Shown here piece by piece: positions 1 to 23,125 of a stretch of DNA of 23,125 nt; within the stretch, counting starts at the first letter, position 1, and every line of letters starts with the position of its first letter. Source of the DNA: Chiloscyllium plagiosum (taxonomy: Eukaryota). Location of the stretch: the NCBI RefSeq assembly GCF_004010195.1, contig NC_057749.1, positions 11,946,839 through 11,969,963 of the forward strand, read 5' to 3'. Below the pieces are notes generated by a model. The model did no database searches and was not told the DNA's origin. It worked only from the letters and a program-made list of their open reading frames with translations. The position numbers and the translations under genes were made by a program.

Positions 1-1170
1 GTCTACCCTGATTTAACAGTTTCAGTAGCTGGCCATTTAATTTCAGAAACAGCTACAGTACTTTCTGTATTTTGTTTGTATTTACCATGTTCCTTGTCTA
101 CTTCACCCAGAGAATATTAGACTGTTGGAAACTGGAGCCAAAAGAGGGACCAGAGACCAAGACAGGGAATAGGAGCCTGAGATGACTGCTCTCATTGCAA
201 ACAGCAAGATGGATGCTGCATATTTCCAACGTTTGCTTTTTGCACTTTATTCCTTTCACAGGTCACTCAATCCTCGAGAGTATTTGCAGTATTTTCTGTT
301 TTCCAAACCATCTTCAACTCAACCTCCACACATCCCGACCCTGGGAAAGTTACTGAGACATTCCCTCCCCTCTGCTGATCACAACTCGATTAGAGGTTAC
401 TGATGACTTCAGGTCATCATTTGCCCAAGTACAGGGAGATGTACAACCTTGGGAATAAGGTTCTACAAATCCTGCAACAGAAGTTTTAACCTCCTCCACA
501 ATCTGCTTTGATAAGGTACTTCTCCTACAGAGAAACACCCCAAGAAAACTGAGGGCGGAGCGGGGGGGGGGGTAACAGTGAATAGCAGACAGTAAGTAGT
601 AAGGGGTAGATACCAAAGAACACAGAGACTTGATGGATTTGTTGAAGTTGGGAAATTGTGTGGTCTATAGAAACTCCAGAGATAGAGGCAAAGAGATTAA
701 AAAAACAGAAGCTGATGGTAGAAGACAGGGAAGTAGAAGTACATGTATTCTGGAGCAACTGTGTGGGACTAAAGCGGGGAGTACAGCAGATTAGCATGAA
801 GACTAGGCATAGTAAAACCATAACAGGATCAAGAAAGGAGGATGTGGAACTTGATTTAAAGAACTAGCAGCAGATGGTGGCTTCACTAAAGTGCGTGGAG
901 GGAACCCAATCACAACACTTTGTCAGTTTGCATTTGAGTACAATATCCAAGTCTTTCTGCAAAGAAATGAGAATGATCTAAAAAGAGTCTGATCCAGGTT
1001 TAAAGGGGAATTCTCTGCCCCATTCTTCATGTTTCCATATTAAAGTTCAATTATCTTCTTTCTGACTGTACTAAAAGGAATTAGAATGTACGGCCACTGA
1101 AGTGGAAACTAGCTCCAGATTTAAGTACAGATTCTCAGGGTTTGAGAGTCAGATGTGAGGGCTCACTCAC

Positions 1171-1422
1171 CATTTTCCCAATCATCATCACATAGGGTCC
1201 CAGGTACTTGTTGACACCAAAGATGTCAAGGACACGGATATACCAGATGATAATATCCACACAGTAGATGACACGACCATAGCTCATATAGGGTTGACTC
1301 TGGAGCCGCAGTAACACACCACAGCTGAAGATAGCAATTGCCACCATGTCAGTGACATTCCAGTATTCCTGCATCCACACTTTCACCTTCTGCCTCAGTT
1401 TACTTGGCTCTGACATCAGAAT
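1171..1422 (-). CDS. TRPM1: TRPM1 coding exon, [25 protein letters not shown]...[22 protein letters not shown] (S3-S4-linker)
   Basis: 252 nt, phase 0/0; acceptor atttag, donor gtgagt; the next exon was not found in 1-1170, so the gene continues beyond the window. Confidence 0.94.
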
Positions 1423-4318: not shown

Positions 4319-4412
4319 CAGAGCTGAAAAATGTGTTGCTGGAAAAGCGCAGCAGGTCAGACAGCATCTAAGGAGCAGGAGAATCGCGCTTCGGGCATAA
4401 GCCCTTCATCAG
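4319..4412 (-). mobile_element. Short Penelope-like insert, family A, with degenerate minimal hammerhead
   Basis: Minus strand reads CTGATGA A GGGC TTAT GCCC GAAGCGC gattctcctgctcc...; body matches the copies at 10180, 10527 and 18640. Confidence 0.75.
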
Positions 4413-4439
4413 TTAGGATCGTCAAACTCCCTTTTTGAA

Positions 4440-5360
4440 CAAAGGAATGGAAACATTCTAATGGAAACTTCCCTAAAGGAAATGCTAAGAGAATTCTGGA
4501 AAATTAAAATCAATGCATCAGCTATTGCACTAGCCATTTCTTTTAAAACCCTAGGATGTAGTCCATCATGACCTAGGGGCTTGTCAAGCCACAGTTCCAA
4601 CAATTGCTCAGTACTTCTTCTCTGATGATTATCATTATCTTTAATTCCTCCCTCCCTTCCATTTCCTGATATGGGATGTTACTGGATTTCTTTATAGTGA
4701 AACCTGTTGCAAAATAATAATTCGTGTACAAGCCCTTTATTTTCCATTGTTAATTTCCCAGACTCACTAGTTATTATCCAATGTTAACTTTAAAAACTCT
4801 TTTTTGTTTTTAAATATCTATATTGGTTCTTACTGTTTCTTTTGATGTTTCTAGCGAGTTTTTTCTCATTCTCTATTTTTTCCATCTTCATTGATCTTTT
4901 TCATGGGGCAGCACGGTGGCTCAGTGGTTGCCTTGGGCAACTGTCTGTGTGGAGTATGCACATTCTCCCTGTGCCTGCATAGGTTTCCTCTGGGTGCTCT
5001 GGTTTTCTCCCAGAATTTGAAGATGTACAGGTTAGGTGAATTGGCCATGCTAAATTGCCCATGTGTAGGTTAGGGGCATTAGTCGTGGTAAATATAAGAT
5101 GATAGGGTAGGGGTCTGGGTGGGTTACTCTTCGGAGGGTCGGTGTAGACTTGTTTGGCTGAAGTGCCTGTTTCTACTCTGTAGGGATTCTAATTCTAAAG
5201 CTATAGGTAATATTTTAAAATTTTATTTAACCTGCTCTTTTTTTATATTCTGTCCAATCTCCTTCCACCTGAATTTGTTCAATTATCTACCTTTTCATTA
5301 AGTTTGATGTTGTCTTTAACCTTCTTCATTATTCACAGATGGTGAATCATCCTCTTGGAA
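4440..5360 (-). mobile_element. CR1 LINE ORF2 internal fragment, interrupted by a SINE
   Basis: ORF 4409-4603 DGLHPRVLKEMASAIADALILIFQNSL matches DGMHPRVLKEMVGEIASVFVVIFQNLL in ORF 15676; the extent beyond the SINE is approximate. Confidence 0.7.
4905..5197 (+). mobile_element. tRNA-derived HE1/V-SINE-like element with deletion in the tRNA head
   Basis: ggggcagcacggtggctcagtggtt (A box) joins directly to the central domain; ends ...ctgtagggattcta; homologous to the 6947 and 17741 copies. Confidence 0.82.
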
Positions 5361-5481
5361 TTTTTCTTGTAAAGACAGAGGGGGTGGATCCTAAAAGTAT
5401 GCATACAAATGGGACAGGTTTCTCAGAGTCCTTACAGAAAATTACTGGAGTTTAATAGACCGAATGAAACCATCAATGGAT

Positions 5482-5650
5482 TAGTGACCTTTCACTTCAG
5501 CTGATGACCATTCTGCTACATCCTTTGACTTCTCCTGTGGTCAGTGATCTTTAACCCCCAAGACATATACTGCCCCAAAACTGACCTCTCCAACTGACCA
5601 GTGTCACTCCCTCCAAAACCAGTGACCTTTCTGCATGGTCAATGACATTT
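5482..5650. repeat. Degenerate minisatellite, period about 20 bp (core cagtgacct)
   Basis: TGAC/TGAT-like cores at 5485, 5505, 5526, 5545, 5582, 5602, 5623, 5643. Confidence 0.55.
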
Positions 5651-5782
5651 TCCCAAAGTTACTCTTCCCCTTTACATTCTCCCCTGTTAAGGTTAAAAGT
5701 ACAGAAATAGAGATCCCCATTTTGGGGATACCATAACTGAAAGCTCAAATTTGAAAATAATAAAATGATATGGCTTTCTCAC

Positions 5783-5911
5783 CTCCCTGATTTTCTCAAT
5801 AGCCAACATCAAAATATATGAGATGAGAATCCATTCTGCAATCGAGGGCAAGCCATCCATCTTCACCAGTATTACATAGTTGTAGAGCAGCAAGTAAGCA
5901 AGATATGCCAT
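5783..5911 (-). CDS. TRPM1: TRPM1 coding exon, [43 protein letters not shown] (S1-S2)
   Basis: 129 nt, phase 0/0; acceptor ccacag, donor gtgaga; hydrophobic helices ending in EKIRE. Confidence 0.93.
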
Positions 5912-6479
5912 CTGTGGAAGAATGGACAAAGATGCTTTTTGAATAAGGAGTATTTATAATTTCACAGGGCGTACAAAGATCAATAAGTGTATTTGCAAGC
6001 TGAAATATCAGAGGGAGTGGAACTGTATCAATAAAGACCAGTGCAAGCACAACTGACTGAATCAGCTCCTTCTGTACTATACAATTCCATTAAAATATCT
6101 AAAGCAGAATTTCAAAATATCATAATTCGAAAATAAAGTGATTAGGATAAGGGCTTATGAGGGGCAAGCACTTCTGCAATTTTCTGATGGATTAACATTC
6201 CCACATTCCACAAATCCTCAATCCCTTGTCCACAATATTATAGCATCTTGCTATACAGGAGGCCATTCAGCCCATTGTGCCAGTCTGTGAGTTATCAATT
6301 AGTCCGACACCATTATCTTTCCTCATGGTCATGCTAAATTTTCCTTTTCAAGTGTCATCTGAGTCCCTGATGGAATATACCCCTACACATTCTTGAAGCG
6401 ACGCATAGCACTAATACAAAGAATAGTAAGTCAATGAGTGAAGTTGGAGCAGGAGAGAAAGCGCCAAAAGTCTAAATCA

Positions 6480-6630
6480 AGGTTACTCTGCATACATGCA
6501 TAGGGTCTAGTCAAGAAGTTTGGGGAATTACATGCGCATACTCTCAAGTAGAAATATGATGACATCACTGTAACAGAGATCTGGCTCAGGGAAGGGCAAG
6601 GCTGGTGTTAAATATTCCTTGGTACAAGGT
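6480..6630 (+). mobile_element. CR1 ORF2 N-terminal APE endonuclease fragment
   Basis: Decayed YD.I.VTEIWLREGQGW...NIPWYK motif, similar to 9800-9960 and 22945-23125. Confidence 0.6.
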
Positions 6631-6694
6631 AAGAATCCATTTGGCTAGGTAAGTCATCCATCTTCCCCATAGTTGCAAAGCAGCAAGTGATAAA

Positions 6695-6892
6695 AGGAGA
6701 CTGAGGGGTGACATTATAGAAGGTTATAAAATCATGAGAGGCATCAGTAGGGTGAATAGCCAAGGTGTTTTCCCAGGGTAGGGAAGTCCAGAACTAGAGA
6801 GCAGAATGTAAGGTGAGAGGGGGAAGATTTAAAAAGGACTGGAGGGACAACGTTTTCCACTCAGAGGGTGATGCATGTACAGAACAAGCTGC
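6695..6892 (+). mobile_element. CR1 ORF2 C-terminal fragment
   Basis: gagactgaggggtgacattatagaaggttataaaatcatgagaggc resembles 12220-12265 (RRL.GDL..VYKIMR). Confidence 0.72.
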
Positions 6893-6946
6893 TAATTATA
6901 TTGCTTGGTGTAGGATTTCTTTTTCTTTCATTCATGGGATGTACGT

Positions 6947-7267
6947 GGGGTGGCATGGTGGCTCAGTGGCTGGCACTGCTGCCTTACAGTGTCAGGGACC
7001 CAGATCCGATTCCATCCTCAAGTGACTGCTTGTGTGGAGTCTCCACGTTTTTCTTTGGGTCTATGTGGGTTTCTGCTGGGTATTCCTGTTTCCTCCCACA
7101 GTCCAAAAATGTGCAGGTTAGATGGACTGGCCATGCTAAATTTCCCTGAGTGTTCACAGATGTGCAGGCTAGGTGGATTAGCCAATATAAATATGGCTGG
7201 GAAGGTCTTCAGAGGGTCAGTGTAGACTCCATGGGCCAAATGGCTTCTTCACTGTAGGGATTCTATG
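6947..7267 (+). mobile_element. HE1/V-SINE-like element, full length
   Basis: tRNA-like head ggtggctcagtggctggcactgctgccttacagtgtcagggaccc; central domain; tail cactgtagggattctatg. Confidence 0.83.
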
Positions 7268-7276
7268 TTTTATGTC

Positions 7277-7399
7277 TTATGATCACCTGATGAAGCTCCG
7301 AAAGCTAGTGTGCTTCCAATTAAACCTGTTGGACTATAACCTGGTGTTGTGTGATTTTTAACTTTATACACCCCAGTCCAACACCGGCATCTCCGAATC
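7277..7399 (+). mobile_element. Short Penelope-like insert, family B, with 12-bp target-site duplication
   Basis: ATGTTTTATGTC at 7265-7276 and 7400-7411 flanks the insert; hammerhead-like core at the 5' end; body unrelated to family A. Confidence 0.72.
7284..7310 (+). ncRNA. Minimal type-I hammerhead ribozyme-like motif (stem II collapsed)
   Basis: CAC CTGATGA AGCTCC GAA AGCT A GTG: stem I CAC/GTG, palindromic AGCT replacing stem III, predicted CUA cleavage triplet. Confidence 0.6.
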
Positions 7400-7984
7400 A
7401 TGTTTTATGTCGGCTTTGCTGTCTTGCTAGAGCCATTTCAGAGGGCATTGAAAAGTCAATTGCTGTAGGTATGTTCTCACATATATGCCAGATCAGGTAA
7501 GGATGGCAGAGTTCCTTCCTGAAAGGAACACCGGTGAACCAAATTGGTATTTATGACAATCAACAGTGATCACATGGTTGCCATTAGTCTAGTATTTCAT
7601 TCTAGTTTTTTTACTGTATTCAAATGTCATCATCTATCAAGGTGGATTTGAACCATGACCTCAGAGCATTAACCTGGGTTTCTGATTTACTATTAAAGTG
7701 ATACTACCACTATGTCACCATCTCCCCACTTCTTGGGGATGAAGTGTGCCAAGTGGATCAAGTGTCAACGAGGAAACATTGAGGAGACAGTGTTTATTGT
7801 ATCACAATGTTAGGATGACAGTAGGAAAGAACAACCACCCAGAGTAACAATAACTAATTGTGGGTCAACTGACTCTATTGGGATCAGCAAGGAGTCTTCT
7901 TTGGCACGTTAATAGTGAAAGGAGGGAAGGAAGAGAAATAGAGGATGTTGATCCTACTCAGACTATAGTGATAGAAGAGGTAAG

Positions 7985-8620
7985 TCTACATTAGGAAGGA
8001 TTCAAAATTAATGAGGAATTACTGATTAGCCTGACAGTATTTCAAGTTGATAAAAGACCGGATGAATACAGTACACCAAGGATATTGAAGGAAGTGAGAG
8101 TGAAAATTGATGAGGTACTGGCCATAAACTTTCACTCAAGAGAAGTTCCCAGAGAGCCAGACAATTACAAATTACATCCTTGTTCAAAAAGGTTGTAAGC
8201 AGAAGTCCAGTAACCACAGGCCTACCAGTTTAACCTCAATGGAAGGGAGGCTTCTATAATTTGTATTCAGAAGAATGAGAAGTGACCCTATTGAAACATA
8301 AATTTCTGAGCAGAGTTGACAGGATGGATATTAAAAGGATGTTTTCGCTTGAGGGAGAGATGAAGGGATACAGTTAAAAATATGGCGATGAGGAGAATTT
8401 TCTTTCCCTCAGAGGATCTTGAGTCTGCGAAATTCTCTTCCCCAGATAGCTTTTAATATTTTAAAAGCATAATTAGATAGTATCTTGAACAACAAGAGAG
8501 TCAAAGGGTGTAGGAACTCGGTGACAAAGTGGAGTTGAAGCCATAGTCAGATCAACCATCATCATATTGACTGGCACAGCAGGCTCAAGGGACTGAATGA
8601 TCCACTCCTGCTCTTAATTC
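7985..8620 (+). mobile_element. CR1 LINE fragment with internal deletions and 3' UTR
   Basis: Decayed RILKEVRVKI / VTSLFKKG motifs; 3' end ...ggctcaagggactgaatgatccactcctgctcttaattc. Confidence 0.7.
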
Positions 8621-8621
8621 A

Positions 8622-8918
8622 ATTTTTTTCATCATTCATGAGATGTTGGCATCGCTGGCTATCCCTAGTTCCCCTGATGGCAGTTGACTCTAAACATTGT
8701 TGTGGGTATGGAATCAGATTCAGGCCAGAACAAGGAAGAAAGGCAGATTTCCTTCTCTAAAGGATATTAATGAACCACATGGGTTTTTAATTATTTTTAA
8801 GATCAGACTTTATATTGAGTTCAAATTTTACCATCTGCCATGGTGGGATTCAAACCCATTTGCTGAGAATGTTAGCTTCAGGTTTGAGATTACTAGTCCA
8901 GTGACATTACCACTGCCT
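8622..8918 (-). mobile_element. Deu-domain SINE (SacSINE1-like)
   Basis: Reverse-complement homolog of 13505-13840 and same orientation as 7412-7727 (ttcaaattttaccatctgcca, ggcagatttccttc). Confidence 0.72.
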
Positions 8919-10113
8919 AGTAGCTAATAGATTTAGAGAAGTGATTACACAGCAGGATCAGTCAGATAATTGGGTGACTGTCAGGAAAGGTAAGAAGGTA
9001 TTTCAGAAGTCTGTATGGTTATTCCTCTGTCAAACAGATACTCAGTTTTGGGTACTGTTGAATAGAATAGTCTCTTAGAGGAAAATACAAGAGACAGTCA
9101 GATCTTGGGCACAAGGGATGAATGTTACGTTAGGCTGGGGTTTGACAAAATTTAAAAGAATAATTGTTATGGGGACTGTTCTATCAAGAGCACAGACAGA
9201 AGATTCTGTGAACGTGTGCATGAATCTGGGATAGAATGATGCATTCCTGGTGCGAGGATTAAGGACATCTCAAAATGTTTGAAGCACATTGTTACAGGGG
9301 AGAGTTAGAAACTAGAAATGATTGTATACATCGGTAGGAATGACATAGGGAAAAGATAAAGGCTTTACAGAGTAAATATAAAAGGTTAGGTAGAAGATTA
9401 AAAAACAGAACTCAAAAGTAGTAATCTCTGGTTTACTCCTGGTGCCAAACTCAAATGAGGGAAAGAATAAAAGGATAATGGAAATAAATCAACGATTGAA
9501 GAGATGGTGCAATGCTCAAGGATTTGGGTTCTTAGATCATTAGAATCTCTTCTGGGGCAGAAAAAAAACCTGATCAAAAAGAATAGGTTTCACCTGTACT
9601 AGAAAAGAATGAATATCCCAGTGGGAAGATTTACTAATTCTATTAAAGGAGATTGTAAACTATGAGAGAAATGGGGTGGAGGGATCCTAAGTAGCAGAGT
9701 AAATAGAAAGATGGATGAGTTTGACTCAGAAAAGAACAAATTAATTAGAAAAGACAGACAAGAGCAAGTCAGTGAACAATGTAACTCTGAAGAATTAAAC
9801 TGAATTTATTTCAATGCAAGGAGTCTTATAGGTAAGGCTGGTGAAGTCAGGGTATGTTTGGGATCATAAGATTGGGACATTATAGCTATTATGAAACCTT
9901 GACTGAGGGATGGGCAGGACTGGCAGCTCAATATTCCAGGTTTCAGATGCTATAGGAAGGATAGTCAGGGAGGCAAAACAGGAGTAGAGATGGTGTTTTT
10001 GATGAAAGAAAACATCCCTGCTGTAACTAGAAAAGATATTTCTGAAAAATGATCCTGTGAAAATGAGTTGAAATTAGAAATTAAAAAAAAGGAATGATCA
10101 CCTTGCTGGGATT

Positions 10114-10273
10114 AGGAGACAGTGAGCTCTGCAGATGCTGGAGATCAGAATTGAGAGTGTGTTGCTGGAAAAGGTTTTCCTGATGAAGGGCTCGGCCCGA
10201 AACGTCGATTTTCCTGCTCCTCGGATGCTGCCTGACCTGCTGTGCTTTTCCAGCAACATACTCTCAACCTCGA
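10114..10273. mobile_element. Penelope-like family A insert with inverted arm
   Basis: 10114-10173 is the family 3' end in minus orientation; 10178-10270 is a plus-strand copy with the hammerhead; TGGGATT repeated at 10107-10113 and 10274-10280. Confidence 0.78.
10178..10208 (+). ncRNA. Minimal type-I hammerhead ribozyme motif (core intact)
   Basis: CTGATGA (10180-10186) A GGGC-TCG-GCCC GAA ACGT C (10206): complete core, 4-bp GC stem II, palindromic ACGT, GUC cleavage triplet; stem I only about 2 bp. Confidence 0.72.
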
Positions 10274-10526
10274 TGGGATTGTCCAATTGACCCCCTTCCC
10301 CAGTAGTTAGAGTGAAATTGAGAAACAAAAAATGTAGAGATCTCAGATATATGTAAGATTAATAAGGTGGTAAAAGGTGATTTTAACTTTCTAAACATTG
10401 ACTGGGATTACCATAGTGTTAAAGGTTTGCATGGGGAAGAATTTGTTAAATATATTAAAAAAAAATTCCTTTATCAATATGTAAATGTTTCTACTAGAGA
10501 AACATTATTGCCTTAATAAGACAGGG

Positions 10527-10632
10527 ACCGAAACGTCGATTCTCCTGTTCCTTGGATGCTGCCTGACCTGCTGCGCTTTTCCAGCAACACATTTTCAGCT
10601 CTGATCTCCAGCATCTGCAGCCCTCACTTTCT
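10527..10632 (+). mobile_element. 5'-truncated Penelope-like family A insert with 15-bp target-site duplication
   Basis: CTTAATAAGACAGGG at 10512-10526 and 10633-10647; insert starts aCCGAAACGTC (3' half of the hammerhead) and ends cctcactttct. Confidence 0.82.
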
Positions 10633-12599
10633 CTTAATAAGACAGGGCAAGTGAGTGAAGTGATAACAGGGCAACACTTTGGGTGTAGTGATCATAGTTC
10701 TAGTAATTTTAAAGTAGTTATGAGAAAGAATAAATCTTGCATGAAAATTAAAGTTTTTAATTGGAGTAAGGCAAATTTTAATGGTACAAGACAGGAAATT
10801 TCAAAAATTAATTGGAGTAGACTGTTTGCATGTGGAGGGACATCTGATAAGTGGGAGGCTTTCAAAAGTGTAATAATGAGAGTTCAGAGTCACTATATTC
10901 ATGTTAGGGTCAAAGGTAAGGCTGGTGGGACTAGAGAACAATGGATGAATAAAGATATTGAAGCTCTCATCAAGAATAAAAAGATCGTATATTAGATGTA
11001 AACAACTGAGTTCAAATGAATCTCTTGAAGAGTATAAAAAGTGTAGGGACATTCTTAAGGGGGAGATCAGGAAGGTAAAGAAGGGATACAAGATAGCCTT
11101 GGCAAATAAGGTTAAGGATAATCCAAAGAAATTCTACAAGCACATTACAAGCAAACGAGCAATTAGAGACAGAGAGTAGGGCCCCTTAGAGATCAATGAG
11201 ATTGATGGGATAGATATTACATGAATATTTTGCATCAGTTTTTTTTCTGTAGAGATAGAAATGGAGCTAGAGAACTCTGGGAAATAAATATCGAGGTTTT
11301 GAAAACAATTCACATGACAGAAGAGAAGTGCTGGAGTTCTTAGAAAGTATAATGGTAGATAAATCTCTGGGACTTGATCTAGTCTATCCCCAAATGTTGT
11401 GGGAAGTTAGGGAGGAAATTGCAGGGCCCTTTGCAGAAATGCTTGTATCACTTACATATCTGGGTATGTGCTGAATGACTAGGAAGTGGCTAATGTTGTG
11501 CCTTTATTTAAGAAAGGATGTAAGGAGAAGGCTAGGAACTATGAACCTGAGAGTCTGAATTCGGTGGTAGATAAGTTGTTGGAAGTGATTCTGAAAGATA
11601 GGATTTATCTGCATTTAGAGAGGGATAGTCAGCTTGGTTTTGTGCGAGGGAAGTCATGTCTCACAAACTTGATTGAGGTTTTTGAGGAATTAACCAAGAA
11701 GGTTGACAAGCGCAGAGCAATAGACATTGTTTACATGGACCTTAGTAAAATCTTTGACAATGTTGAGTACAGTCGACTAAAGTTGGTAAAGTTAGATCAA
11801 ATGGGATTCAGGGTGAGTTTGCCTATCGGATACAACATTGGCTTAACAGCACGAGACAAAGAGTGATGGTGGATTGTTGTTTTTCAAACTGGAGGCCTAT
11901 GACCAGCAATGTTCTGGGGGTTTGGTGCTGGGTCCTGTTTTGTTTGTCATTGATGTAAATGATTTAGATGAGAATATGGAAAACACAATAGTAAGTTTGT
12001 AGATGACAGCAAGATTGGTGGAATAGTGGACAGTGAAAAGGCTACCTAAGTTACAAAGAGACCTTGATCAATGGGCTGAAGAATGGCAGAATGTTATAGG
12101 AAGGATATTAATAAGTTGGAAGGGGTTCAGAAAACAGCTACGAGGATGTTGCCAGGAATGGACTGTTTGAGTTATAAAAATAGACTGGATAGGCTGGGAC
12201 TTTTTTCACTGGAGCACAGGAGGTTGACAGGTGACCTTCATAAAGTTTATAAAATCATGAGGGCTATCAATAAGGTGCATGGCAAGTGTCTTTTTCCTCA
12301 GGTGGGGTTTCAAGACTAGGGGGCATTTCAAAAAGACATGAGGGCAATTATTTTACATAGAGAGTGATTCATGTATTGAATGAACTTCCAGAGGAAGTGG
12401 TAGACGTGGGTTTAGTTACAACATTTAAAAGACATTTAAATAAGTACATGAATAAGAAATATTTGGTAGAATATGGGCCAAGTGCAGGTTGGTGGGATTA
12501 GTTTAGTTTTGGATTATGGTTGGCATGGACTGGTTGGACCAAAGGGTCTGTTTCCATGCTTTATGACTCTATTGCTCTACATATAAAGCCAGAACTTAC

Positions 12600-12731
12600 A
12601 GTATGGAACCAGAATTTAACAATTGGTGCATTGTAGAACTCATAAATCTTTCTTCCAATTGGGATGCTTCTGTGATTTTCCATCCCATCTTCTTCATCCC
12701 CTTTTCTTGAAACAGCCTCAGTGTTTGCATC
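12600..12731 (-). CDS. TRPM1: TRPM1 coding exon, [44 protein letters not shown]
   Basis: 132 nt, phase 0/0; acceptor tttcag, donor gtaagt; conserved [12 protein letters not shown] motif preceding S1. Confidence 0.93.
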
Positions 12732-12766
12732 CTGAAATAACAATAATAGAATTTCACATGGTGCAT

Positions 12767-12846
12767 TGTACATGGTCAGTACTCCACACAGGACGATGTA
12801 CCCGCCTGGTCAGTACTCCACACCGGACAATGTACTCCTGGTCAAC
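12767..12846. repeat. Tandem duplication, unit 32-34 bp, about 2.3 copies
   Basis: tggtcagtactccacac.ggac.atgtac starts at 12773 and 12807; partial tggtcaac at 12839. Confidence 0.85.
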
Positions 12847-13013
12847 AAAGCTCAGTCCCATGCTGAACACATCATTCACTTGCTTGGACTCCGATTTTCC
12901 TGTTTTAGATTTTTAATGTTAAACTTCATGGATTATCCCCTCATCCCAACAGTCATTCCCCACCCACTGGGTGCCCATTTCTGCCCCATCCCATTCCCTT
13001 CTGACTCACTTAC

Positions 13014-13133
13014 GTTGTCCTCCTCCTTCTCTTTCCCCTGTTCATTGTCCCCAGTTGCTTCATACGACAAATCATCGCTACTTTTAAACTCCATGAAGAG
13101 AATGGCTGGTGGAAATATGATGCCCAACATAAT
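13014..13133 (-). CDS. TRPM1: TRPM1 coding exon, IMLGIIFPPAILFMEFKSSDDLSYEATGDNEQGKEKEEDN (pre-S1 region)
   Basis: 120 nt, phase 0/0; acceptor tgtcag, donor gtaagt (a second, out-of-frame gtgagt lies 4 nt further into the intron). Confidence 0.88.
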
Positions 13134-13504
13134 CTGACAGGAGATCAAAATCACGTGTTAGTAAAGTATGTTCAGGATGAAAAGTGACCACAGGACTGAT
13201 TTATTAATTGATTTTATAACCATTTATATTTAAGATGCAGGCAGTTAGATCCAAGTAAAAATACCACATATAACATGGAAACACTTGAACTATGCATAAC
13301 ATATCACATTACAGTTTAATTTCACTCGCCACATTAACAATCCCTTGACAAATGTTTTCACATGGGTAATGTGCTGGAAAAATACAAGTTCTTTCTTTCT
13401 GTTTAAACTTGCCATTTCTTCAGAATGTCACTAAGCACAGTACAGACAAGTATGTTATGTTGAAGAGGAGTCACTGATTGTAATCGAGGAAACGCCAATA
13501 ATCT

Positions 13505-13840
13505 GGGGAAGTGGTGGTGTAGAGGCTATGTCACTGGACAATAATTTAAAACCTCAGTGTTCTTAAGATTGGGTTCAAATGCCAGCGTGGCAGATGGTCG
13601 AATTTGAATTTTAAAAAATCTGAAACAAACAGCTGATACTAAATGACCACATAATCATTGTTGTTTGTTGTAAAAACTCATTGTCTTTAGTAATGCCCTT
13701 TGGGGAAGAAAAGACACTTTCTTTAACTGGTCGGGAGTATGTGATACTGCAGAGCTACAGCAACGTGTTTGCATCTTTTATTGGATGGACAATAAATGCT
13801 GGCCGAGCCAGTCACAATCACATCCCTTGGACATAAAACA
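13505..13840 (+). mobile_element. Deu-domain SINE (SacSINE1-like)
   Basis: Head ggggaagtggtggtgtag...gggttcaaatgcc; core taatgccctttggggaagaaa; tail caataaatgctggcc...cacatccc. Confidence 0.72.
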
Positions 13841-13958
13841 AATTGCATTCATTGAGCAATACAAGATTTTTAAAGATGCACCATGGTGAGAGTATCAAAA
13901 GGATAAATGACGAGATATTATGATTATAATTATAAAAAGATGAATGGGTTTGCATTTA

Positions 13959-14225
<267 letters not shown>

Positions 14226-14442
14226 TCAAACAAAGAGAAAGAAATAGTGAGAGAGCAGAAAGGAAGAGAAGCTGTCACAGACATGTGACTGAGCAGTTCA
14301 CAGGTCCTTGACCAATTTTATGCTGTTTATGAATTTTTAATAGGCCGCAAAGCGACAACTGCATTTTGGAGAAGAACGGGAGCCACCATTTTAAAAAAAG
14401 TAAAGAGAAATGAATGTGGGGTTGAAAGGAAGGGGGACTGAC

Positions 14443-14741
14443 TTTGAGTTGTTTTCCAGGTCCTGCGAGATGTCATCCACAAGCTCACTGCCAGAACATT
14501 CATTTGACATGGCTTTGTAAAGCTTGCAGGCAACCAGGGCCTTGGCCAAAGCTTCTTCACCATGCTGCCAGAAAAACAATGCCATTCTCTGCCGTTTCAT
14601 CAACACAGCCCACACTAGCAGCTCATGGAACGGGTAGGCAAATCGGCCAATGGCTGGGTCATCCTCATCAATATCAATCTCTTCTTCCTTTTTCTTCTTC
14701 TTTTTCTTCTTCCTCTTGGATTTTGAGGGTGGTTCATCATC
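14443..14741 (-). CDS. TRPM1: TRPM1 coding exon, [29 protein letters not shown]...[11 protein letters not shown](K)
   Basis: 299 nt, phase 0/2; acceptor tcccag, donor gtcagt; the poly-Lys/acidic tract is characteristic of TRPM1 rather than TRPM3. Confidence 0.93.
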
Positions 14742-15361
14742 CTGGGACAGGCCACAAGCAGTGTTAATAGCACATACCAAATATCCTTTCACATCAACAC
14801 ATCACTCATTCACCAGCACTTTCCATGATGCCAGGTCACAGAAAGGGAAAAAAACCAAGAGCTAGCAGGCATAAGGATGACCAGAAACCAGGCTCATCTC
14901 AAAGGTCTATACATCTGTTTTATTCAAAAAGTAATTTTTAAACCTAGTACTTTTCCGTTTGGAAAATAAAAATGATAAAGAAAATAAAAGTGACGTTGGG
15001 GAAAGGTTTAGATTTGGGAGTAATCAGGGGGTTATGGTGTGTACAAAGTGCCAGCATTGTATCTAATTACACTAACATGACGAGTAAAGTAAAATAAGGA
15101 CAAATAGCTATTCATGCTGGAAATCTGAGAATCACAGGATGGAGGACAAGGGCAGGGTGCTGCTGCTGTTTTAGGTGAATATCTGATTCCTTGTGATGCA
15201 CTCGGAATATCCTGGACACCAATTCATAGGAAGGAGGTTCTTATATTTTGGAGTGGACAGTGCAATATAAGCTGGGGAAAGGGTCAAGAAATTGGGACCA
15301 ATATTGATTGTTGCAAGCCATGTGGACAACAGGCATTGGGAATAAGTAAGCATTAATTTCA

Positions 15362-17178
15362 CGAGAAAGCCTCAAATAGAGCTATAAAGAAAAGTAAGGT
15401 AGAACATGAGAAAAAATTAGCACAGAATGTAAAGACAGATAGCAAAACTTTCTATAAATATATAAAACAAAAAAAAAGTGTGGCTAAAGTAAACATTGGT
15501 CCTTTAGAGGATGAGATGGGGCATTTAGTCATGGGATATGATGAAATGGCTGAGGCATTGAATAGGTATTTTGTGTTGGTGTTCACAGTGGAGGACACAA
15601 ATAACATGCCAGTAATTGACAAAGAGAGAAAGGTAGATAAGGACCAGAAAACAAATCATTATCAGAGATGAGGCAGTGTTGGGCAAGCTAATGGAGCTCA
15701 GGCTAGACAAATCTCCTGGCCTTGATGGAATGCATCCCAGGGTACTAAAAGAGATGGTGGGAGAAATAGCAAGTGTGTTTGTGGTAATTTTCCAAAATTT
15801 ATTAGACTCTGGGATAGTTCCAGTAGTTTGGAAAACAGCCAATGTGATGCCACTACTTAAAAAGGGTGCTGGACAAAAGTTGGGGAATTATAGAACGGTT
15901 AGCTTAACTTCTGTCATGGGGAAGATGCTTGAGTCTATTATCAAGGAAGAAATAGCAAGGCATCTAGACAGAAATTGTCCCGTTGGGCAGACGCAGCATG
16001 GGTTCATGAAGGGCAGGTCATGTTTAACTAATCTTTTGGAATTCTATAAAGACATTATGAGCACGGTGGACAATGGGGACCCAGTAGATGTGGTGTACTT
16101 AGATTTCCAAAAGGTCTTTCACAAGGTGCTGTACAAGAGGCTGCTGCATAAGGTAAAGATGCATGGCGTTACGGGTGAATTATTAATGTGGATAGAGGTT
16201 TGGTTGACTAACAGGAAGCAAAGAGTGCGGATAAATGAGTGCTATTCTGGTTAGTGATCACTAACTAGTGGTGAGCCTCAAGGATCAGTGTTGGGACCGC
16301 GATTACTCATCATTTACATAGATGATTTGGAGTTGAGGACCACGTGCAGTGTGTCAACGTTTGCAGATGACACTAAGATCAGTGGTACAGCGAAGTGTGC
16401 AAAGGACTGTGAAACTCTGCAGAGGAACATAGATACATTGAATGAGTGGGCAAAGTCTGGCAGGTGAAATACAATGTTAATAAATGTGAAGTCATCCATT
16501 TTGGTAGGTATAATGTAAAAAGGACTATTACTTGAATAGTAAAAAGTTGCAGCATGCTGTTATGCAAATGGAATTTTGTCCTTCATTGCTAAAGGGACTG
16601 AGTTTAAAAGCAGGGAGGTTATTTTGCAGCTGTACAGGGTGCTGGTGAGGCCACACTTGGAGTACTGCATGCAGTTTTGGTCTCCTTACCTGAGAAAGGA
16701 TGTGCTGGCTCCAGAGGAAGTTCACTAGGTTGATTCTGGAGTTGAGAGAGTTGGCTTATGAGGAGAGACTGAGTAGACTGGGATTATTTTCATTGGAATT
16801 TAGAAGAATGAGTGGGGATCTTACAGAAACATATAAAATTATGAAGGGAGTAGACAAGAGAGACATAGAGAGGATGTTTCCACTGGCAGGTGAAACTAGG
16901 ACAAGAGGGCACAGCATCAAAATTAGGGGAAGCAGATGTAGGACTGAATTGAGAAGGAACTTCTTCATCCAGAGGGTTGTGAATCCATGGAATTCCCTAC
17001 TCAGTGAAGTAGTTGACATGACTTCAGTAAATATTTTTAAAGCCAAGATAGATTTTGTTTGAATTATGAAGGGATTAAGGGTTATGGTGAGCTGAGGCCA
17101 CAAATAGATCAGCCATGATCTTAAGGCTCGAAGGGCCAGATGGCCTACTCCTGCTCCAATGTCTTATGTTATGTATTT
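15362..17178 (+). mobile_element. 5'-truncated CR1 LINE with RT domain and 3' UTR
   Basis: ORF 15676-16254 (DKSPGLDGMHPRVLKE, QHGFMKGRSCLTNL, VYLDFQK); PQGSVLGP near 16276 and FADD near 16360; interrupted by stops. Confidence 0.92.
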
Positions 17179-17315
17179 TCTTATGAATGTTGTTCCTCCA
17201 TCTATCTTATTGGGGGTGCAGTGTCAACACAAAATCATTGGAACACAGCACTGAAGCTGCAACTTTAATCTTACCACTACTTGTATCCTCCCTATCATGT
17301 ATGTGTCCACCTCTA

Positions 17316-17505
17316 CATAGTGTTACAGCACTATTAGTAACATAGTTACCACGTTACATGGACCTTGTTATGTAGAGTTACCATGTCGCACCCACCATTT
17401 CCCTGTAACCCAATGGAATTATCTCATTCCACAGGCAGTTACTATATTACCTATGTAATTGCCTCTTTATACATGGAATTACTCTCAATACCTACATTGT
17501 TATAT
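17316..17505. repeat. Degenerate low-complexity repeat rich in GTTAC/ATTAC
   Basis: Recurring tgttac, agttacca, ggaattac words without a clean period. Confidence 0.4.
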
Positions 17506-17740
17506 TCTTCACTCTTTGTTTAAGAGAAATCAAAGGATTCCATTCAGTCATAGGAAACTGTGCGAAATGATCACCTTTGAATAAAAGGTCAGTCTTGTTG
17601 GTTAAAGCAAATAATGCAAAGGCTCAATCTCAATGTGAAGGGGTTAGAAAGGGCAAATACTGAAGACAAGCTGCTAGTGATGGAATAAGACTCAGTCCTG
17701 GGAGAAGAAACAGTTTGACAGGGAAAAATGGAATATACCA

Positions 17741-18058
17741 AGATTAGATTCCCTACAGTGTGGAAACAGGCCCTTCAGCCCAACAAGTCCACACCAACCC
17801 TCCGAAAAGAAACCCACCCAAACCCATTTCCCTCTGACTAAAGCACCTTACACTATGGGCATTTTTTTTAGAATGGCTGATTCACCTGACCTGCACATCT
17901 TTGGATTGTGGGAGGAAACCTGAGCACTGGAGGAAACCCACACAGACACAGGGAGAATGTGTAAACTCCACTCAGACAGTCACTCAAGGCCGGAATTGAA
18001 CCTAGGTCTCTGGCGCTGTGAGGCAGCAGTGCTAACCACTGAGCCACTGTGCTGCCCC
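17741..18058 (-). mobile_element. HE1/V-SINE-like element, full length and well preserved
   Basis: Minus strand ggggcagcacagtggctcagtggttagcactgctgcctcacagcgccagagacctaggttcaattcc (Pol III A and B boxes); tail (aatct)n. Confidence 0.88.
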
Positions 18059-18146
18059 AAGGATCAAGGTACCAAGAATCAAAAGGAATCAAAAACCAAC
18101 TGTACATCAAAAACTCTGCATCAAGAATACTTCAAATATCACTCAC

Positions 18147-18176
18147 CTCCATCCCCAGAAGTTTCAGAGCTTTTGG
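18147..18176 (-). CDS. TRPM1: TRPM1 30-nt microexon, PKALKLLGME
   Basis: Minus strand reads ttcttcctgcag|CCA AAA GCT CTG AAA CTT CTG GGG ATG GAG|gtgagt; supplies exactly the peptide between ...FGPKR and DDEPP...; not in the ORF track. Confidence 0.93.
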
Positions 18177-18634
18177 CTGCAGGAAGAAAGAATGAAATAG
18201 ATTAGCAAACAGAGAGTAGGGACTGGTAACATGCCAGAGCAGAATGAGAAAAATGATTAATATTTACACATATTTTCTTTACATTGTCATCAGAAACAGC
18301 CCAAATTATTTCACCAACGATGTTAATCTGTGATTATGAGGTAAAGGTCTGCAACTGTTTCTCAGTGAAATCACCAATAATTAAGAAGGGAGTAAGGAGT
18401 CACTGACCAGCGATCAGAGAACAGCGTGGCTTGTAGAGAGATCGGAGACTTTGGAGATCATTACTGAATTAATAAGAGAGGGAAATTGAAGGGCATTTAG
18501 TGGTTGGGAAGGTGTTGTTATACGGAATCACAGCACTTTCCCACCTATTCCCCGATGATGTGAGGACAGGGAGGCTCATAGATGGGCTTCCTACCCTGAC
18601 ACTAATTGAGGTCTTTGCATGTGCAATTAATACT

Positions 18635-18767
18635 GATTCCTGATGAAGGGCTCCAGCCCGAAACATTGATTTTCCTGCTCCTCGGATGCTGCCTGACCTG
18701 CTGTGATTTTCCAGCACCACTCTAATCTTGACTCTGAGCTCCAGCATCTTTAGTCCTCACTTTCACC
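18635..18767 (+). mobile_element. Penelope-like family A insert with CpG-decayed hammerhead
   Basis: attc CTGATGA A GGGCT-CC-AGCCC GAA ACAT T gatt...; ACGTCG has become ACATTG; complete family 3' end. Confidence 0.78.
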
Positions 18768-19100: not shown

Positions 19101-19203
19101 GTTAGATTAGATTCCCTGATTAGATTAGATCCCCTACAGTGTGGAAACAGGTCTTGCGGCCCAACCAGTCCACACCGACCATCCGAAGAGTAACCCATCC
19201 AGA
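19101..19203 (-). mobile_element. 5'-truncated HE1-like SINE 3' end with duplicated tail
   Basis: Matches 17741-17825; ttagattagattccct occurs twice. Confidence 0.8.
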
Positions 19204-21350: not shown

Positions 21351-22310
21351 GGGAGATTCAAGATGGCACCGACCCAGCAAGTCTGAGTCTGTAGTGCTCT
21401 GCCTAAGACTTGGGCAAAGTGGGGCACCCGCCTTCACCACACCTTTTAAATCATTTAAAATACTTTTTGCCCAGCATAGTTAGTCATTTTACATCAAACG
21501 TTTACAGTTGTTCTTAAAATGACTAAGGGCAAAAATTCCTGCAGTTCGCAACAGGCGGGGACCCCTCTTCCACCCCTCCAGCAGCAGTGAAGACGCCCGC
21601 GGCTGCCTCGGGGGACTTACCTGCGGAAGCGACCCTGATCTCCTGGATCAACAAGCTGCAGGAGAAGATCAACACCTTCGTTGAAGAATTCAGGACCAGA
21701 TGGGAGTCGTTCTCGGTCGTGCTGCAGAAGCACGACCAAGAAATTGAAAAAAAATCGAACAGTGCGTCAGAGGGTCGGAGCAAAAGGCCGCGACCTCGGA
21801 AGCTGCTGCCAAGTCAGCCGTGGGCCGGGTCCGGGCTCTCGAGCAGCGAGTCCAGACCTTGGAAGAGTACATCGACCACCTCGACAATCGGGGTTGTTGA
21901 AAAAATATTCGTTTGCTGGGCCATCCCAAACGGGAAGAGGAAGGCCAGCTGGCAGTTTTTTTGGAGCAATGGCTCCCTCAAATATTTAAGTTGGAGTCTT
22001 GATCAGGCCAGGTACAGGTGGAGTTGGCCCACAGGTTGCTATACACAGGCCCGGGTCGGACCAGCGCCCCTGCCCGGTTCTGTTCCGGCTCCAATACTAT
22101 AAAGAGAATCAGATGCTCGTGGAAGCCTCCAGAGTCCTGGGGAAGGATCCTCAGGCTGTGATACACAAGGGTTCCAGAATTATGTTATTTCAGGATTTTT
22201 GTCCAGCCGTGGTCTGCAAAACGAGGGCATTCAATGAGGCAAAGAAGTGTCTAAGAGGCCTAAATATCCAATACACCTTTCGTTACCCAGCAACGCTCCG
22301 CTTCAGCCAT
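21351..22310 (+). mobile_element. L1 LINE 5' end: 5' UTR plus frameshifted ORF1 (ATG 21519), 3'-truncated
   Basis: Starts gggagattCAAGATGGC; coiled-coil region, LEEYIDHLDNRGC*KNIRLLGHP (ENRxRRxNxRIxGxPE-like) and IMLFQDFCP...YTFRYPATLRF, typical of L1 ORF1p. Confidence 0.8.
21359..21367 (+). promoter_or_regulatory. YY1-like site at the L1 5' terminus
   Basis: CAAGATGGC 8 nt from the apparent element start, the usual position of the L1 internal-promoter YY1 site. Confidence 0.5.
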
Positions 22311-23125
22311 GCACTCAAGAGATCAATTGTGTTGGGGATTCTGTAGTTAGAGGTACAGACAGATGTTTCTGTGGCCAGCAAAGAAAAAGCAGAATGGTAT
22401 GTTGTTTCCCTGGTGCCAGGATCAAGGATGTCTCAGAGTGGGTGCAGAATGTTCTCACGGGGGAGAGGGGCCAGCAAGAGGTCATTGTCCACATTGGAAC
22501 CAACGACATTGGAAGGGAAAAGGTTGAGACTCTGAATGGAGAATTAGGCAGAAATTTAAAAAGGAGGTCCTCAAGGGTAGTAATCTCTGGATTACTCCCA
22601 GCGCTACGAAATAGTGAGGACAGGAATAGGAGGATAGAGCAGATGAATGCATGGCTGAGGAGCTGGTGTATGGGGGAAGGATTCACATTTTTGGATCATT
22701 GGAATCTCTTTTGGGGTAGAAGTGACCTGTACAAGAAGGACGGATTGCACCTAAATTGGAAGGGGACTAATATACTGGCAGGGAAATTTGCTAGAACTGC
22801 TTGGGAGGATTTAAACTAGTAAGGGGGGGGGGTGGGACCCAGGGAGATAATGAGGAACGAGATCAATCTGAGACTGGTACAGTTGAGAACAGAAGAGAGT
22901 CAAACAGGCAGGGACAAAGCAGAGAACAAGGTAGGACTGATAAATTAAACTGCATTTATTTCAATGCAAGGGGCCTAACAGGGAAGGCAGATGAACACAG
23001 AGCATGGTTAGCAACATGGGACTGTGATATCATAGCAATTACGGAAACAAGGCCCAGGGATGGGCAGGACTGGCAGTTTAATGTTCCAGGATATAAATGC
23101 TACAGGAAGGATAGAAAGGGAGGCA
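22311..23125 (+). mobile_element. CR1 LINE: ORF1 SGNH/GDSL esterase domain (to 22819) and start of ORF2 APE; runs off the window
   Basis: VGDSVVRG, FPGA, HIGTND and DGLH blocks in one open frame; then KLNCIYFNARGL...DIIAITET. Confidence 0.9.

Follow-up and report, generated by a model that had tools for sequence, protein, structure and literature searches.

Five short stretches in the introns of a TRPM1 gene of Chiloscyllium plagiosum resemble minimal hammerhead ribozymes, which raises the question of what they are, how they came to lie within a single window (the whole 23,125-nt stretch of NC_057749.1 analysed here) and whether they act where they now stand. Our answer is that they are very probably relics of target-primed insertions, in which the end modules of two families of Penelope-like elements (PLEs), F1 and F2, were copied into the introns. 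The observed basis for this reading consists of the anatomy of the inserts, their link to PLE coding sequence, their copy numbers and the covariation between the two lineages.

The earlier note had placed five minimal hammerhead motifs in TRPM1 introns. The setting is supported by an exon at 14394-14801(-) that scores best against TRPM1 and puts the gene on the minus strand. All five motifs are present (Table 1), but by a strict descriptor, which asks for the core, a stem II with 4 bp or more, the palindrome, H17 and a helix I with 2 bp or more and allows a bulge, only that at 10180 is intact, and this is the descriptor's one site in the window, against none in the reversed window. The loops at 10180, 18640 and 4412 differ while the GGGC/GCCC pairing is kept, as had been read from the letters, and the two families do use different self-complementary tetramers at stem III, ACGU in F1 and AGCU in F2. 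The motif at 18640(+) has the layout of 10180 but reads GAA-ACAT-T, two CpG-type changes having broken the 15.2-16.2 palindrome, and that at 4412(-) reads GAA-GCGC on the complement of 4385-4412, hence A15.1 has become G and U16.1 has become C. The supposed 3' half at 10528(+) proved to be just that, part of a copy truncated at 10527 inside the 3' strand of stem II. The motif assigned to an unrelated body at 7284(+) is there and belongs to F2, but half of its stem II is lost: it reads CAC-CTGATGA-AGCTCC-GAA-AGCT-A-GTG, in a copy that lacks 8 nt of the usual genomic F2 form, the 5' strand and loop of stem II. Among the window copies, then, the conserved core survives at 10180 and is broken in the other four. 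The looser pattern CTGATGA-N4-30-GAAA occurs four times in the window against 1.02 expected, a count reached in none of 100 shuffles; one of these matches, at 18274-18293(-), has no stem II and is probably due to chance.

Table 1. PLE end fragments in the window and the hammerhead motifs that they carry.
Feature	Position	Strand	Details
F1 PLE end fragment (window-type subfamily)	4319..4412	-	94 nt, without tail; nhmmer E 2.6e-22; sole window copy in sense orientation of TRPM1
Hammerhead motif of the preceding copy	4385-4412	-	Loop TTAT; stem III changed to GCGC
F2 PLE end fragment with tail	7277..7399	+	12-bp target-site duplication 7265-7276 / 7400-7411; nhmmer E 1.6e-40
Hammerhead relic of the preceding copy	7284-7310	+	5' strand of stem II and loop missing
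Inverted, 5'-truncated F1 fragment (tail end only)	10111..10173	-	Head to head with copy 10176..10271; 87% complementary to 10576-10638
F1 copy without tail	10176..10271	+	Sole intact minimal hammerhead in the window; E 2.4e-26
Intact hammerhead of the preceding copy	10180-10206	+	CTGATGA-A-GGGC-TCG-GCCC-GAA-ACGT-C; predicted cut after C10206
5'-truncated F1 copy with tail	10527..10632	+	15-bp target-site duplication 10512-10526 / 10633-10647; E 9.8e-23
F1 copy, 5' strand of helix I (ATTC) through tail end	18636..18767	+	132 nt; E 5.8e-29
Hammerhead of the preceding copy	18636-18672	+	Loop TCCA; stem III and cut site decayed to ACAT-T

The link to PLE coding sequence is most direct for F1. At nine of 12 endonuclease loci, the endonuclease ORF is followed on its own strand, after 50-330 nt, by the F1 hammerhead-plus-tail module. 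At one locus (L040), a single frame with one stop contains both a reverse transcriptase match (RVT_1, E 6.4e-6, 26.4 bits, under the 29.6 cut-off) and a GIY-YIG match (E 1e-4, 22.9 bits, cut-off 22.6), and is colinear with an 896-aa RT-endonuclease database protein (P0001; 42% identity over 464 aa, E 7e-115). This is the order of an EN+ type PLE, in which the RT is followed by a C-terminal GIY-YIG domain in one ORF. Upstream of F2, at a distance of approximately 700 nt, there is an endonuclease-like ORF that is diverged (tblastn E 1e-12 and 3e-7) and had no Pfam match; the association of F2 with PLE coding sequence is weaker than that of F1. The endonucleases of the two lineages are only about 30% identical. 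Together with the tail described below, these observations support the view that F1 and F2 are the terminal modules of two PLE lineages, and the joining of such fragments to an RT and GIY-YIG ORF, which the earlier note had proposed as a check, is seen for F1 and more faintly for F2. The endonuclease query returned 229,206 first-look candidates across the genome. A 497-aa ORF at another locus (L041), with RVT_1 and GIY-YIG matches, was rejected as proof of a PLE; its RT match belongs to an adjoining LINE-like RT fragment fused in frame, which makes up the N-terminal 110 aa and is 53% identical to a LINE-like fragment at 11477-11833 of the window. The open frames at L036 and L037 contain stretches read as X, so that no weight attaches to their lengths; a PDB sequence search with L036 gave no match, and a word-index protein search for longer relatives returned one protein only.

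The ends of the inserts are as informative as their interiors. Many copies carry a further tail, approximately 34 nt long in F1 and 39 nt in F2, that others lack: 15 of 28 F1 loci have it, 12 do not and one has neither marker, and the corresponding F2 counts among 28 loci are 12, 15 and one. An optional tail of this kind is peculiar to PLEs and implies two alternative 3' ends in both families, and it is from these genomic ends that we place the start sites of reverse transcription. Besides the two duplications in Table 1, target-site duplications flank further F1 copies, and head-to-head pairs are frequent in both families. The F1 copies in the window lie 331 and 8,130 nt apart. Of 86 F1 matches in all, about 80 have E <=1e-8, and approximately two of these start within 3 nt of G1.1; since so few genomic copies begin at the predicted cut site, cut RNA seldom served as template.

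We suggest that the source elements are ordered as an RT/GIY-YIG ORF, a short untranslated stretch and then an end module of three parts: a minimal type I hammerhead, some 65-70 nt that would reach the first start site, and the optional tail of 35-39 nt that would reach the second. In the hammerhead, helix I (3-4 bp) is followed by the CUGANGA box, a single bulged A, stem II (4-5 bp) and GAA, and the self-complementary ACGU or AGCU stands in for a closed stem III. Inserted copies invariably stop at the first or the second start site. Their 5' truncation point varies but falls preferentially where helix I begins, a few nt ahead of the CUGAUGA box. From the literature, we infer that cleavage after GUC or CUA would take place only if two copies pair through the palindrome or if the PLE protein assists, and that the main template for insertion would be something other than cut RNA.

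We considered whether the short copies, of approximately 90-135 nt, might instead be separate non-autonomous families, SINE-like or retrozyme-like, that have the hammerhead at their 5' end and depend on PLE proteins acting in trans for their copying. A discrete 5' end 4-6 nt upstream of the CUGAUGA box, seen at six of the 28 F1 target loci and in further examples that bear target-site duplications, is what such families should show; short copies also greatly outnumber long ones among the window-type F1 subfamilies, and a 2026 preprint argues for a PLE origin of animal retrozymes (10.64898/2026.07.22.740005). However, short and long F1-A copies have common variants just downstream of the cut site and thus come from the same source lineages, and the hallmark of retrozymes, the motif-bearing tandem array, is not found in the window, where TRF reports four small arrays, none with the motif. 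Moreover, reverse transcription that starts internally, close to the 5' end of any PLE transcript, would give rise to the same short copies with no need of separate masters, and on balance we consider independent families unlikely.

A variant of the internal-initiation idea, which we put forward as a speculation of low probability, is that the short copies are retrocopies of the capped 5' leader of PLE mRNA. Transcription would begin a few nt before the CUGAUGA box, making the hammerhead the first structure of the mRNA, and the RT would prime at the internal start sites of the leader and run off its 5' end after approximately 95-135 nt. Such an origin would explain why the 5' boundary is so sharply set where helix I begins, why there are two 3' ends and why short copies number several hundred thousand. 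If it were true, cleavage would strip the cap-bearing first ~33 nt and could switch the RNA between translation and use as a template, and the repeats would be among the largest ribozyme-motif families known in a vertebrate.

The preferred reading, in which the inserts are PLE end modules, also implies that the hammerhead belongs to the source elements, and here a comparison of the lineages is helpful. F1 and F2 share the design of minimal type I PLE hammerheads, in agreement with the first reading of this DNA: A9 is followed by an unpaired nucleotide and then a G10.1-C11.1 pair, 15.2-16.2 is palindromic, loop 3 is absent and helix I is short. The core C3 U4 G5 A6 N7 G8 A9 ... G12 A13 A14 A15.1 ... 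U16.1 H17 is conserved at the level of the family. N7 is U in F1-A/B and F2, A in F1-C, and G or A in the D-type, while H17 is C, A or U. Stem II begins with G and ends with C in F1, F2 and the D-type and occurs as GGGC/GCCC, GGAGC/GCUCC or GGGUC/GACCC, closed by many different loops. None has a closed helix III; its place is taken by a dimer-permitting tetramer, ACGU in F1 and the D-type and AGCU in F2, so that 15.2-16.2 is C-G or G-C and palindromic in all. Helix I is 3-4 bp long: its commonest F1 form, AUUC/GAUU, has a U-U mismatch, the CUGAAGA subfamily has the fully paired AUUC/GAAU, F2 has CAC/GUG, and the D-type, in decayed copies only, has AGUU/AACU. Between lineages, the catalytic core is constant except at N7, and covarying changes are seen in helices I and II and in the palindrome of stem III. 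This variation sits where a hammerhead tolerates change; core conservation and stem covariation had been named beforehand as a check on the idea.

Exact motif matches in the 3.56-Gb genome number 21,286 for F1, 34,022 for F2 and 380 for the D-type, at least 55,688 in sum, with no match in any of the reversed controls, and relic copies perhaps number several hundred thousand; the very large family suspected from five motifs in a single locus thus exists. In 257,035 bases of sampled genome DNA, the strict descriptor found 17 intact motifs that had not been used as search targets, against none in the reversed control. The one-nucleotide bulge is present in all 17, and the bulged nucleotide is A in every intact descriptor match.

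Could the likeness to a hammerhead nevertheless be a coincidence in an abundant repeat, with no ribozyme role in the source elements? Published minimal hammerheads cleave poorly in vitro (PMC4209133), and helix I is weak in the present motifs. The curated Rfam hammerhead models give no match even at E<=10 for the whole window or for 101-nt pieces, as is expected of a motif without helix III. Monomers fold no better than shuffles (z from -2.15 to +0.40), and in the predicted minimum-energy fold of F1 the core is paired with the region around the cut site, so that a molecule folded in this way would be inactive. A polyA single-cell RNA-seq run (X5), a library poorly suited to the purpose, covers the repeats on both strands about equally and shows no pile-up of molecule starts or ends at them; a second run (X6) gave no alignments, and two further sets (X7 and X1) consist of contigs. 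Against coincidence, an Anolis PLE hammerhead is reported to cut when its protein is present, with a C3/G8 rescue (PMC11167929). Furthermore, two lineages with such dissimilar endonucleases, and with flanking RNA that is unlike, keep the same 11 core nucleotides and the bulge, N7 being the only variable core position. Both keep a paired stem II and a palindromic stem III, each of different sequence, and in both the hammerhead occupies the same position with respect to the pair of 3' ends. We consequently regard coincidence as very improbable.

That the host has taken over the motifs as intronic ribozymes acting on TRPM1 pre-mRNA is scarcely credible: they do lie in introns of a TRPM1 gene, and intronic hammerheads occur in amniotes, but the gene is on the minus strand and four of the five copies are on the plus strand, the sole sense copy (4412-) is altered at A15.1 and U16.1, intact motifs are one in five, and the copies are ordinary members of families numbering tens of thousands. 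The window copies themselves are inert: the one intact motif stands alone and in antisense orientation to the host gene, the rest are mutated or truncated, and the inserts have no visible bearing on TRPM1. Their interest lies elsewhere. With intact motifs in the tens of thousands and relics that perhaps number several hundred thousand, this genome offers a rich natural series of mutants of the motif, and in genome annotation such short inserts are better labelled as PLE ends than as new SINEs.

Elements of this kind have already been described (Cervera and de la Pena, 2014; Frangieh et al., 2024), and it is useful to set the present families beside the known systems. They share with canonical type I hammerheads (Rfam Hammerhead_1 and others) the catalytic core and the sequence in which helices I, II and III follow one another, but have neither a helix III hairpin nor loop-loop contacts. 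With non-LTR retrozymes (Cervera and de la Pena, 2020, PMC7229834; Li et al., 2026 preprint, which places retrozymes in one chondrichthyan), they share the character of non-coding hammerhead repeats with a presumed dependence on PLE proteins. Retrozymes, however, are described as tandem arrays with canonical type I hammerheads and circular RNAs, whereas the present inserts are dispersed, single or head to head, and flanked by target-site duplications, with no motif-bearing tandem array in the window.

The present families also resemble the minimal hammerheads found in the pseudo-LTRs of metazoan PLEs (Cervera and de la Pena, 2014, PMC4209133), although in the sampled DNA, where many upstream stretches read as N, no full-length copy preceded by a repeat was seen. 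Those hammerheads too are of type I with an unclosed stem III, a palindromic 15.2-16.2, an unpaired nucleotide between A9 and 10.1, a G10.1-C11.1 pair and a short helix I; they form many sequence families per genome, adjoin a PLE ORF, and are mostly solitary and dispersed, with some copies on opposite strands 100-700 bp apart. The differences concern host, number and helix I: the present host is a cartilaginous fish, which is apparently not among that paper's named examples, and the known pairing of PLE and minimal hammerhead is extended to this group; there are at least 55,688 exact motifs here, against counts of ~4,000 for coelacanth and ~9,000 for Xenopus in that paper; and helix I has 3-4 bp here where 4-5 bp are described, with 2 bp in D. 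virilis.

The Poseidon element PAc of Anolis carolinensis (Frangieh et al., 2024, PMC11167929) offers a further parallel. There, the hammerhead lies at the junction of an untranslated repeat with the next unit, reverse transcription starts at two adjacent internal sites, insertions end at two adjacent sites ~70-120 nt beyond the hammerhead with an optional tail of 30-40 bp, and copies beginning at the ribozyme cut site are rare, all as in F1 and F2. In PAc, however, the ORF is reported to begin at stem II, whereas here the AUG within CUGAUGA opens a frame of only 17 codons in inserted copies and is absent from the CUGAAGA and CUGAGGA subfamilies. Two diverged shark lineages keep both the ribozyme design and the two-ended tail that, as far as that report describes, have been worked out biochemically only in the lizard element, and this favours the idea that the design and the tail are ancient and general among the PLEs of vertebrates.

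All five hammerhead motifs that the earlier note had assigned to two families of short inserts, F1 and F2 (stem III ACGU and AGCU, respectively), can be read in the window where they were claimed. The motif at 10180 is the only one to pass a strict descriptor (core, optional bulge, stem II of at least 4 bp, palindrome, H17 and helix I of at least 2 bp), which finds nothing in the reversed window. The looser pattern CTGATGA-N4-30-GAAA has four matches against 1.02 expected, a number reached in none of 100 shuffles; one of the four, at 18274-18293(-) and without stem II, looks like a chance match. Curated Rfam hammerhead models matched none of the five (whole window; 101-nt pieces, E<=10), as expected when no closed helix III is present.

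Features in the window and in related genomic loci (L labels)
Feature	Position	Strand	Basis or remark
Motif, F1	10180-10206	+	CTGATGA-A-GGGC-TCG-GCCC-GAA-ACGT-C
Motif, F1	18640	+	Design as 10180, loop TCCA; stem III and cut site now ACAT-T through two CpG-type changes
Motif, F1	4412	-	Loop TTAT; GAA-GCGC, A15.1 and U16.1 both altered
Motif, F1	10527	+	Starts within stem II 3' strand
Motif, F2	7284	+	CAC-CTGATGA-AGCTCC-GAA-AGCT-A-GTG; without stem II
F1 copy	4319-4412	-	Repeat finding, profile search
F1 copy	10176-10271	+	Repeat finding, profile search
F1 copy	10527-10632	+	Repeat finding, profile search
F1 copy	18636-18767	+	Repeat finding, profile search
F1 inverted tail fragment	10111-10173		Head to head with copy 10176-10271
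F2 copy	7277-7399	+	Only F2 copy in window
Target-site duplication, 15 bp	10512-10526 / 10633-10647		Around F1 copy 10527-10632
Target-site duplication, 12 bp	7265-7276 / 7400-7411		Around F2 copy
Head-to-head pairs	L047:2375-2596, L045:2886-3117, L045:8592-8801, L037:439-652, L037:2846-3087, L004:392-632, window 10111-10271
Exon	14394-14801	-	TRPM2-like domain, E 6.2e-18
Exon	13959-14225	-	TRPM2-like domain, E 3.7e-14
Exon, TRPM-family channel gene	1138-1422	-	Weak Ion_trans match only, E 0.0084
LINE-type RT fragments	11483-11863, 15637-16251, 16258-16464	+	CR1/L2-like, non-PLE
ORF	22238-22816	+	GDSL-lipase/esterase-like domain, E 4e-12
Second short repeat family	17741-17820, 19122-19201, 5114-5193, 12516-12563	both	Interspersed
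Direct repeat pair, 222 nt	9754-9975 and 22904-23125		76% alike
Predicted long-range stem, F1	L007:1545-1552 with 1601-1608		Fold prediction
Predicted long-range stem, analogous, F2	L071:1403-1539	-	Fold prediction

The F2 motif is 8 nt shorter than the usual genomic form of its family. Target-site duplications are clear around one F1 copy and the F2 copy, and no tandem array holding the hammerhead motif is present in the window. Head-to-head inverted pairs of the module are very common (three in 50 kb of arbitrary DNA), with the junction within a few nucleotides of the CUGAUGA box; a read-through transcript of such a pair would form a long hairpin burying the ribozyme core. The placement in TRPM1 is also supported: compared with solved structures, the exon at 14394-14801 gets its highest score from TRPM1 (165.6 bits versus 139.8 for TRPM3). 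Since this is a minus-strand gene, just one of the five motif copies is in the sense orientation, that at 4412, and its core is mutated; the other four are antisense. Nothing suggests a role for the motifs in TRPM1. The window also contains three LINE-type RT fragments, none followed by an endonuclease or hammerhead module, an ORF that possibly corresponds to a LINE's esterase ORF1 (more open frames lie at 21527-22343), a direct repeat pair, and a second family of short repeats that has no relation to F1 or F2.

The very large genomic family that had been suggested is borne out by exact-match counts in the 3.56-Gb assembly containing the window. The F1 motif occurs 21,286 times (10,588 forward, 10,698 reverse), the F2 motif, searched without fixing stem II, 34,022 times (17,036 and 16,986), and the D-type motif, an older relative with stem II GGGTC/GACCC, 380 times (195 and 185), against 0 in each reversed control. 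The strict descriptor found 17 intact non-target motifs in 257,035 bases of locus DNA from outside the window and 0 in the reversed sequences. A search with the F1 profile on 50 kb taken at arbitrary places gave 12 pieces; scaled up roughly from so small a sample, this suggests several hundred thousand relics genome-wide.

Linkage to the RT and GIY-YIG endonuclease of Penelope-like elements (PLEs), which the earlier note had proposed to look for, was found for F1 and is weaker for F2. Conserved sequence lies upstream of the F1 motif in many loci, and a PLE coding part can be read there in a minority (L001-L042). A genome-wide first look with an endonuclease-like ORF from an F1-bearing locus gives 229,206 candidates; in 9 of the 12 endonuclease loci fetched, the hammerhead-plus-tail module follows in the same orientation, 50-330 nt downstream, and in the other three it is inverted, ~1 kb off or absent, once each. 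Sound evidence for the link comes from the fully readable locus L040, where matches to RVT_1 (E 6.4e-6, 26.4 bits, under the 29.6 cut-off) and GIY-YIG (E 1e-4, 22.9 bits; cut-off 22.6) share one frame with a single stop. This frame is colinear over 464 aa, at 42% identity (E 7e-115), with P0001, an 896-aa database protein that combines an RT domain with a homologous endonuclease at its C-terminus. Five further copies have sub-threshold GIY-YIG matches at the equivalent place. We rejected as proof the 497-aa ORF at L041:526-2016(+), in which the pairing of RVT_1 and GIY-YIG is misleading: its RVT_1 match is a LINE-like RT fragment that by chance continues in frame into a PLE copy truncated at its 5' end. 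For F2, 4 of 28 loci show a diverged endonuclease-like ORF ~700 nt upstream, in the same orientation as the motif. This ORF resembles the F1 ORF (tblastn E 1e-12 to 8e-5) and, in L055, P0001 (E 3e-7), and has a recognisable GIY...YIGET-type stretch and no Pfam match.

Since the decay of dead copies is uninformative on selection, we judged constraint by comparing lineages: F1-A, F1-B (the window type), F1-C, D-type and F2. Between them, core position N7 is U, A or G; stem II is GGGC/GCCC, GGGUC/GACCC or GGAGC/GCUCC; loop 2 differs; 15.2-16.2 is C-G or G-C, self-complementary in every case; H17 is C, U or A; and helix I is AUUC/GAUU, AUUC/GAAU, AGUU/AACU or CAC/GUG. All of these lineages keep the remaining eleven core nucleotides, the lone bulged A and the G10.1-C11.1 pair, and covariation is seen in helix I, stem II and the stem III palindrome. 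Identity between the F1 and F2 endonucleases is just ~30%, and the RNAs downstream of the cut site show no likeness. These hammerhead features correspond to the four marks of genuine PLE minimal hammerheads set out in the available text of Cervera & de la Pena 2014 (PMC4209133).

The anatomy of the module, its place after the PLE ORF, its two 3' ends and its 5' truncation pattern can be observed in the copies themselves. According to the accessible portions of the PLE papers (PMC4209133, PMC11167929), cleavage requires two palindrome-paired copies or help from the PLE protein, and insertion is templated mainly by uncut RNA. By analogy, cleavage of the F1 and F2 hammerheads would require such paired copies or the protein, and their insertion would proceed mainly from uncut RNA. 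The F1 start sites fit uncut RNA as the main template: only about 2 of ~80 hits with E at most 1e-8 (86 hits in all) start near G1.1, whereas the start falls at the first base of helix I, 4-6 nt ahead of the CUGAUGA box, in 6 of 28 loci, and at this place also in additional copies with target-site duplications. An inverted F1 copy upstream beside the target motif in L029 starts exactly at the nucleotide that follows the predicted GUC cut site; among the copies seen, it alone is a clear candidate for an origin from cleaved RNA. In X5, a polyA single-cell RNA run that adds little here, RNA ends do not pile up at the repeats, and coverage is about equal on both strands, which looks like passive read-through transcription.

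Copies located through the hammerhead end at either of two sharp 3' sites. The F1 tail (last ~34 nt) is present in 15 of 28 loci and absent from 12, which stop just before it; the F2 tail (last ~39 nt) is present in 12 of 28 and absent from 15, one locus in each family having neither marker. This two-ended arrangement matches the optional 30-40-bp tail of Anolis Poseidon, which the available text of Frangieh et al. 2024 (PMC11167929) traces to two adjacent internal reverse-transcription start sites and calls unique to PLEs; there, as here, the hammerhead lies ~90 nt upstream of the two sites. In predicted folds, a long-range stem of 7-9 bp closes a loop that contains the first 3' end, and the 3' strand of this stem would lie within the optional tail in both families despite their unlike sequences.

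Since 2014, minimal hammerheads of PLEs have been on record from fishes, coelacanth, amphibians and reptiles, and the motifs described here are a known kind of element. Our literature searches found no paper describing these dispersed shark hammerhead families, which is weak evidence of their absence from print. In the portions of the sources available, PLEs are recorded from shark genomes (PMC8455134, PMC4350176) and tandem retrozymes are reported from one chondrichthyan in a 2026 preprint (10.64898/2026.07.22.740005). The main distinctions of the present families are their copy number and the tail signature, shown in two shark lineages.
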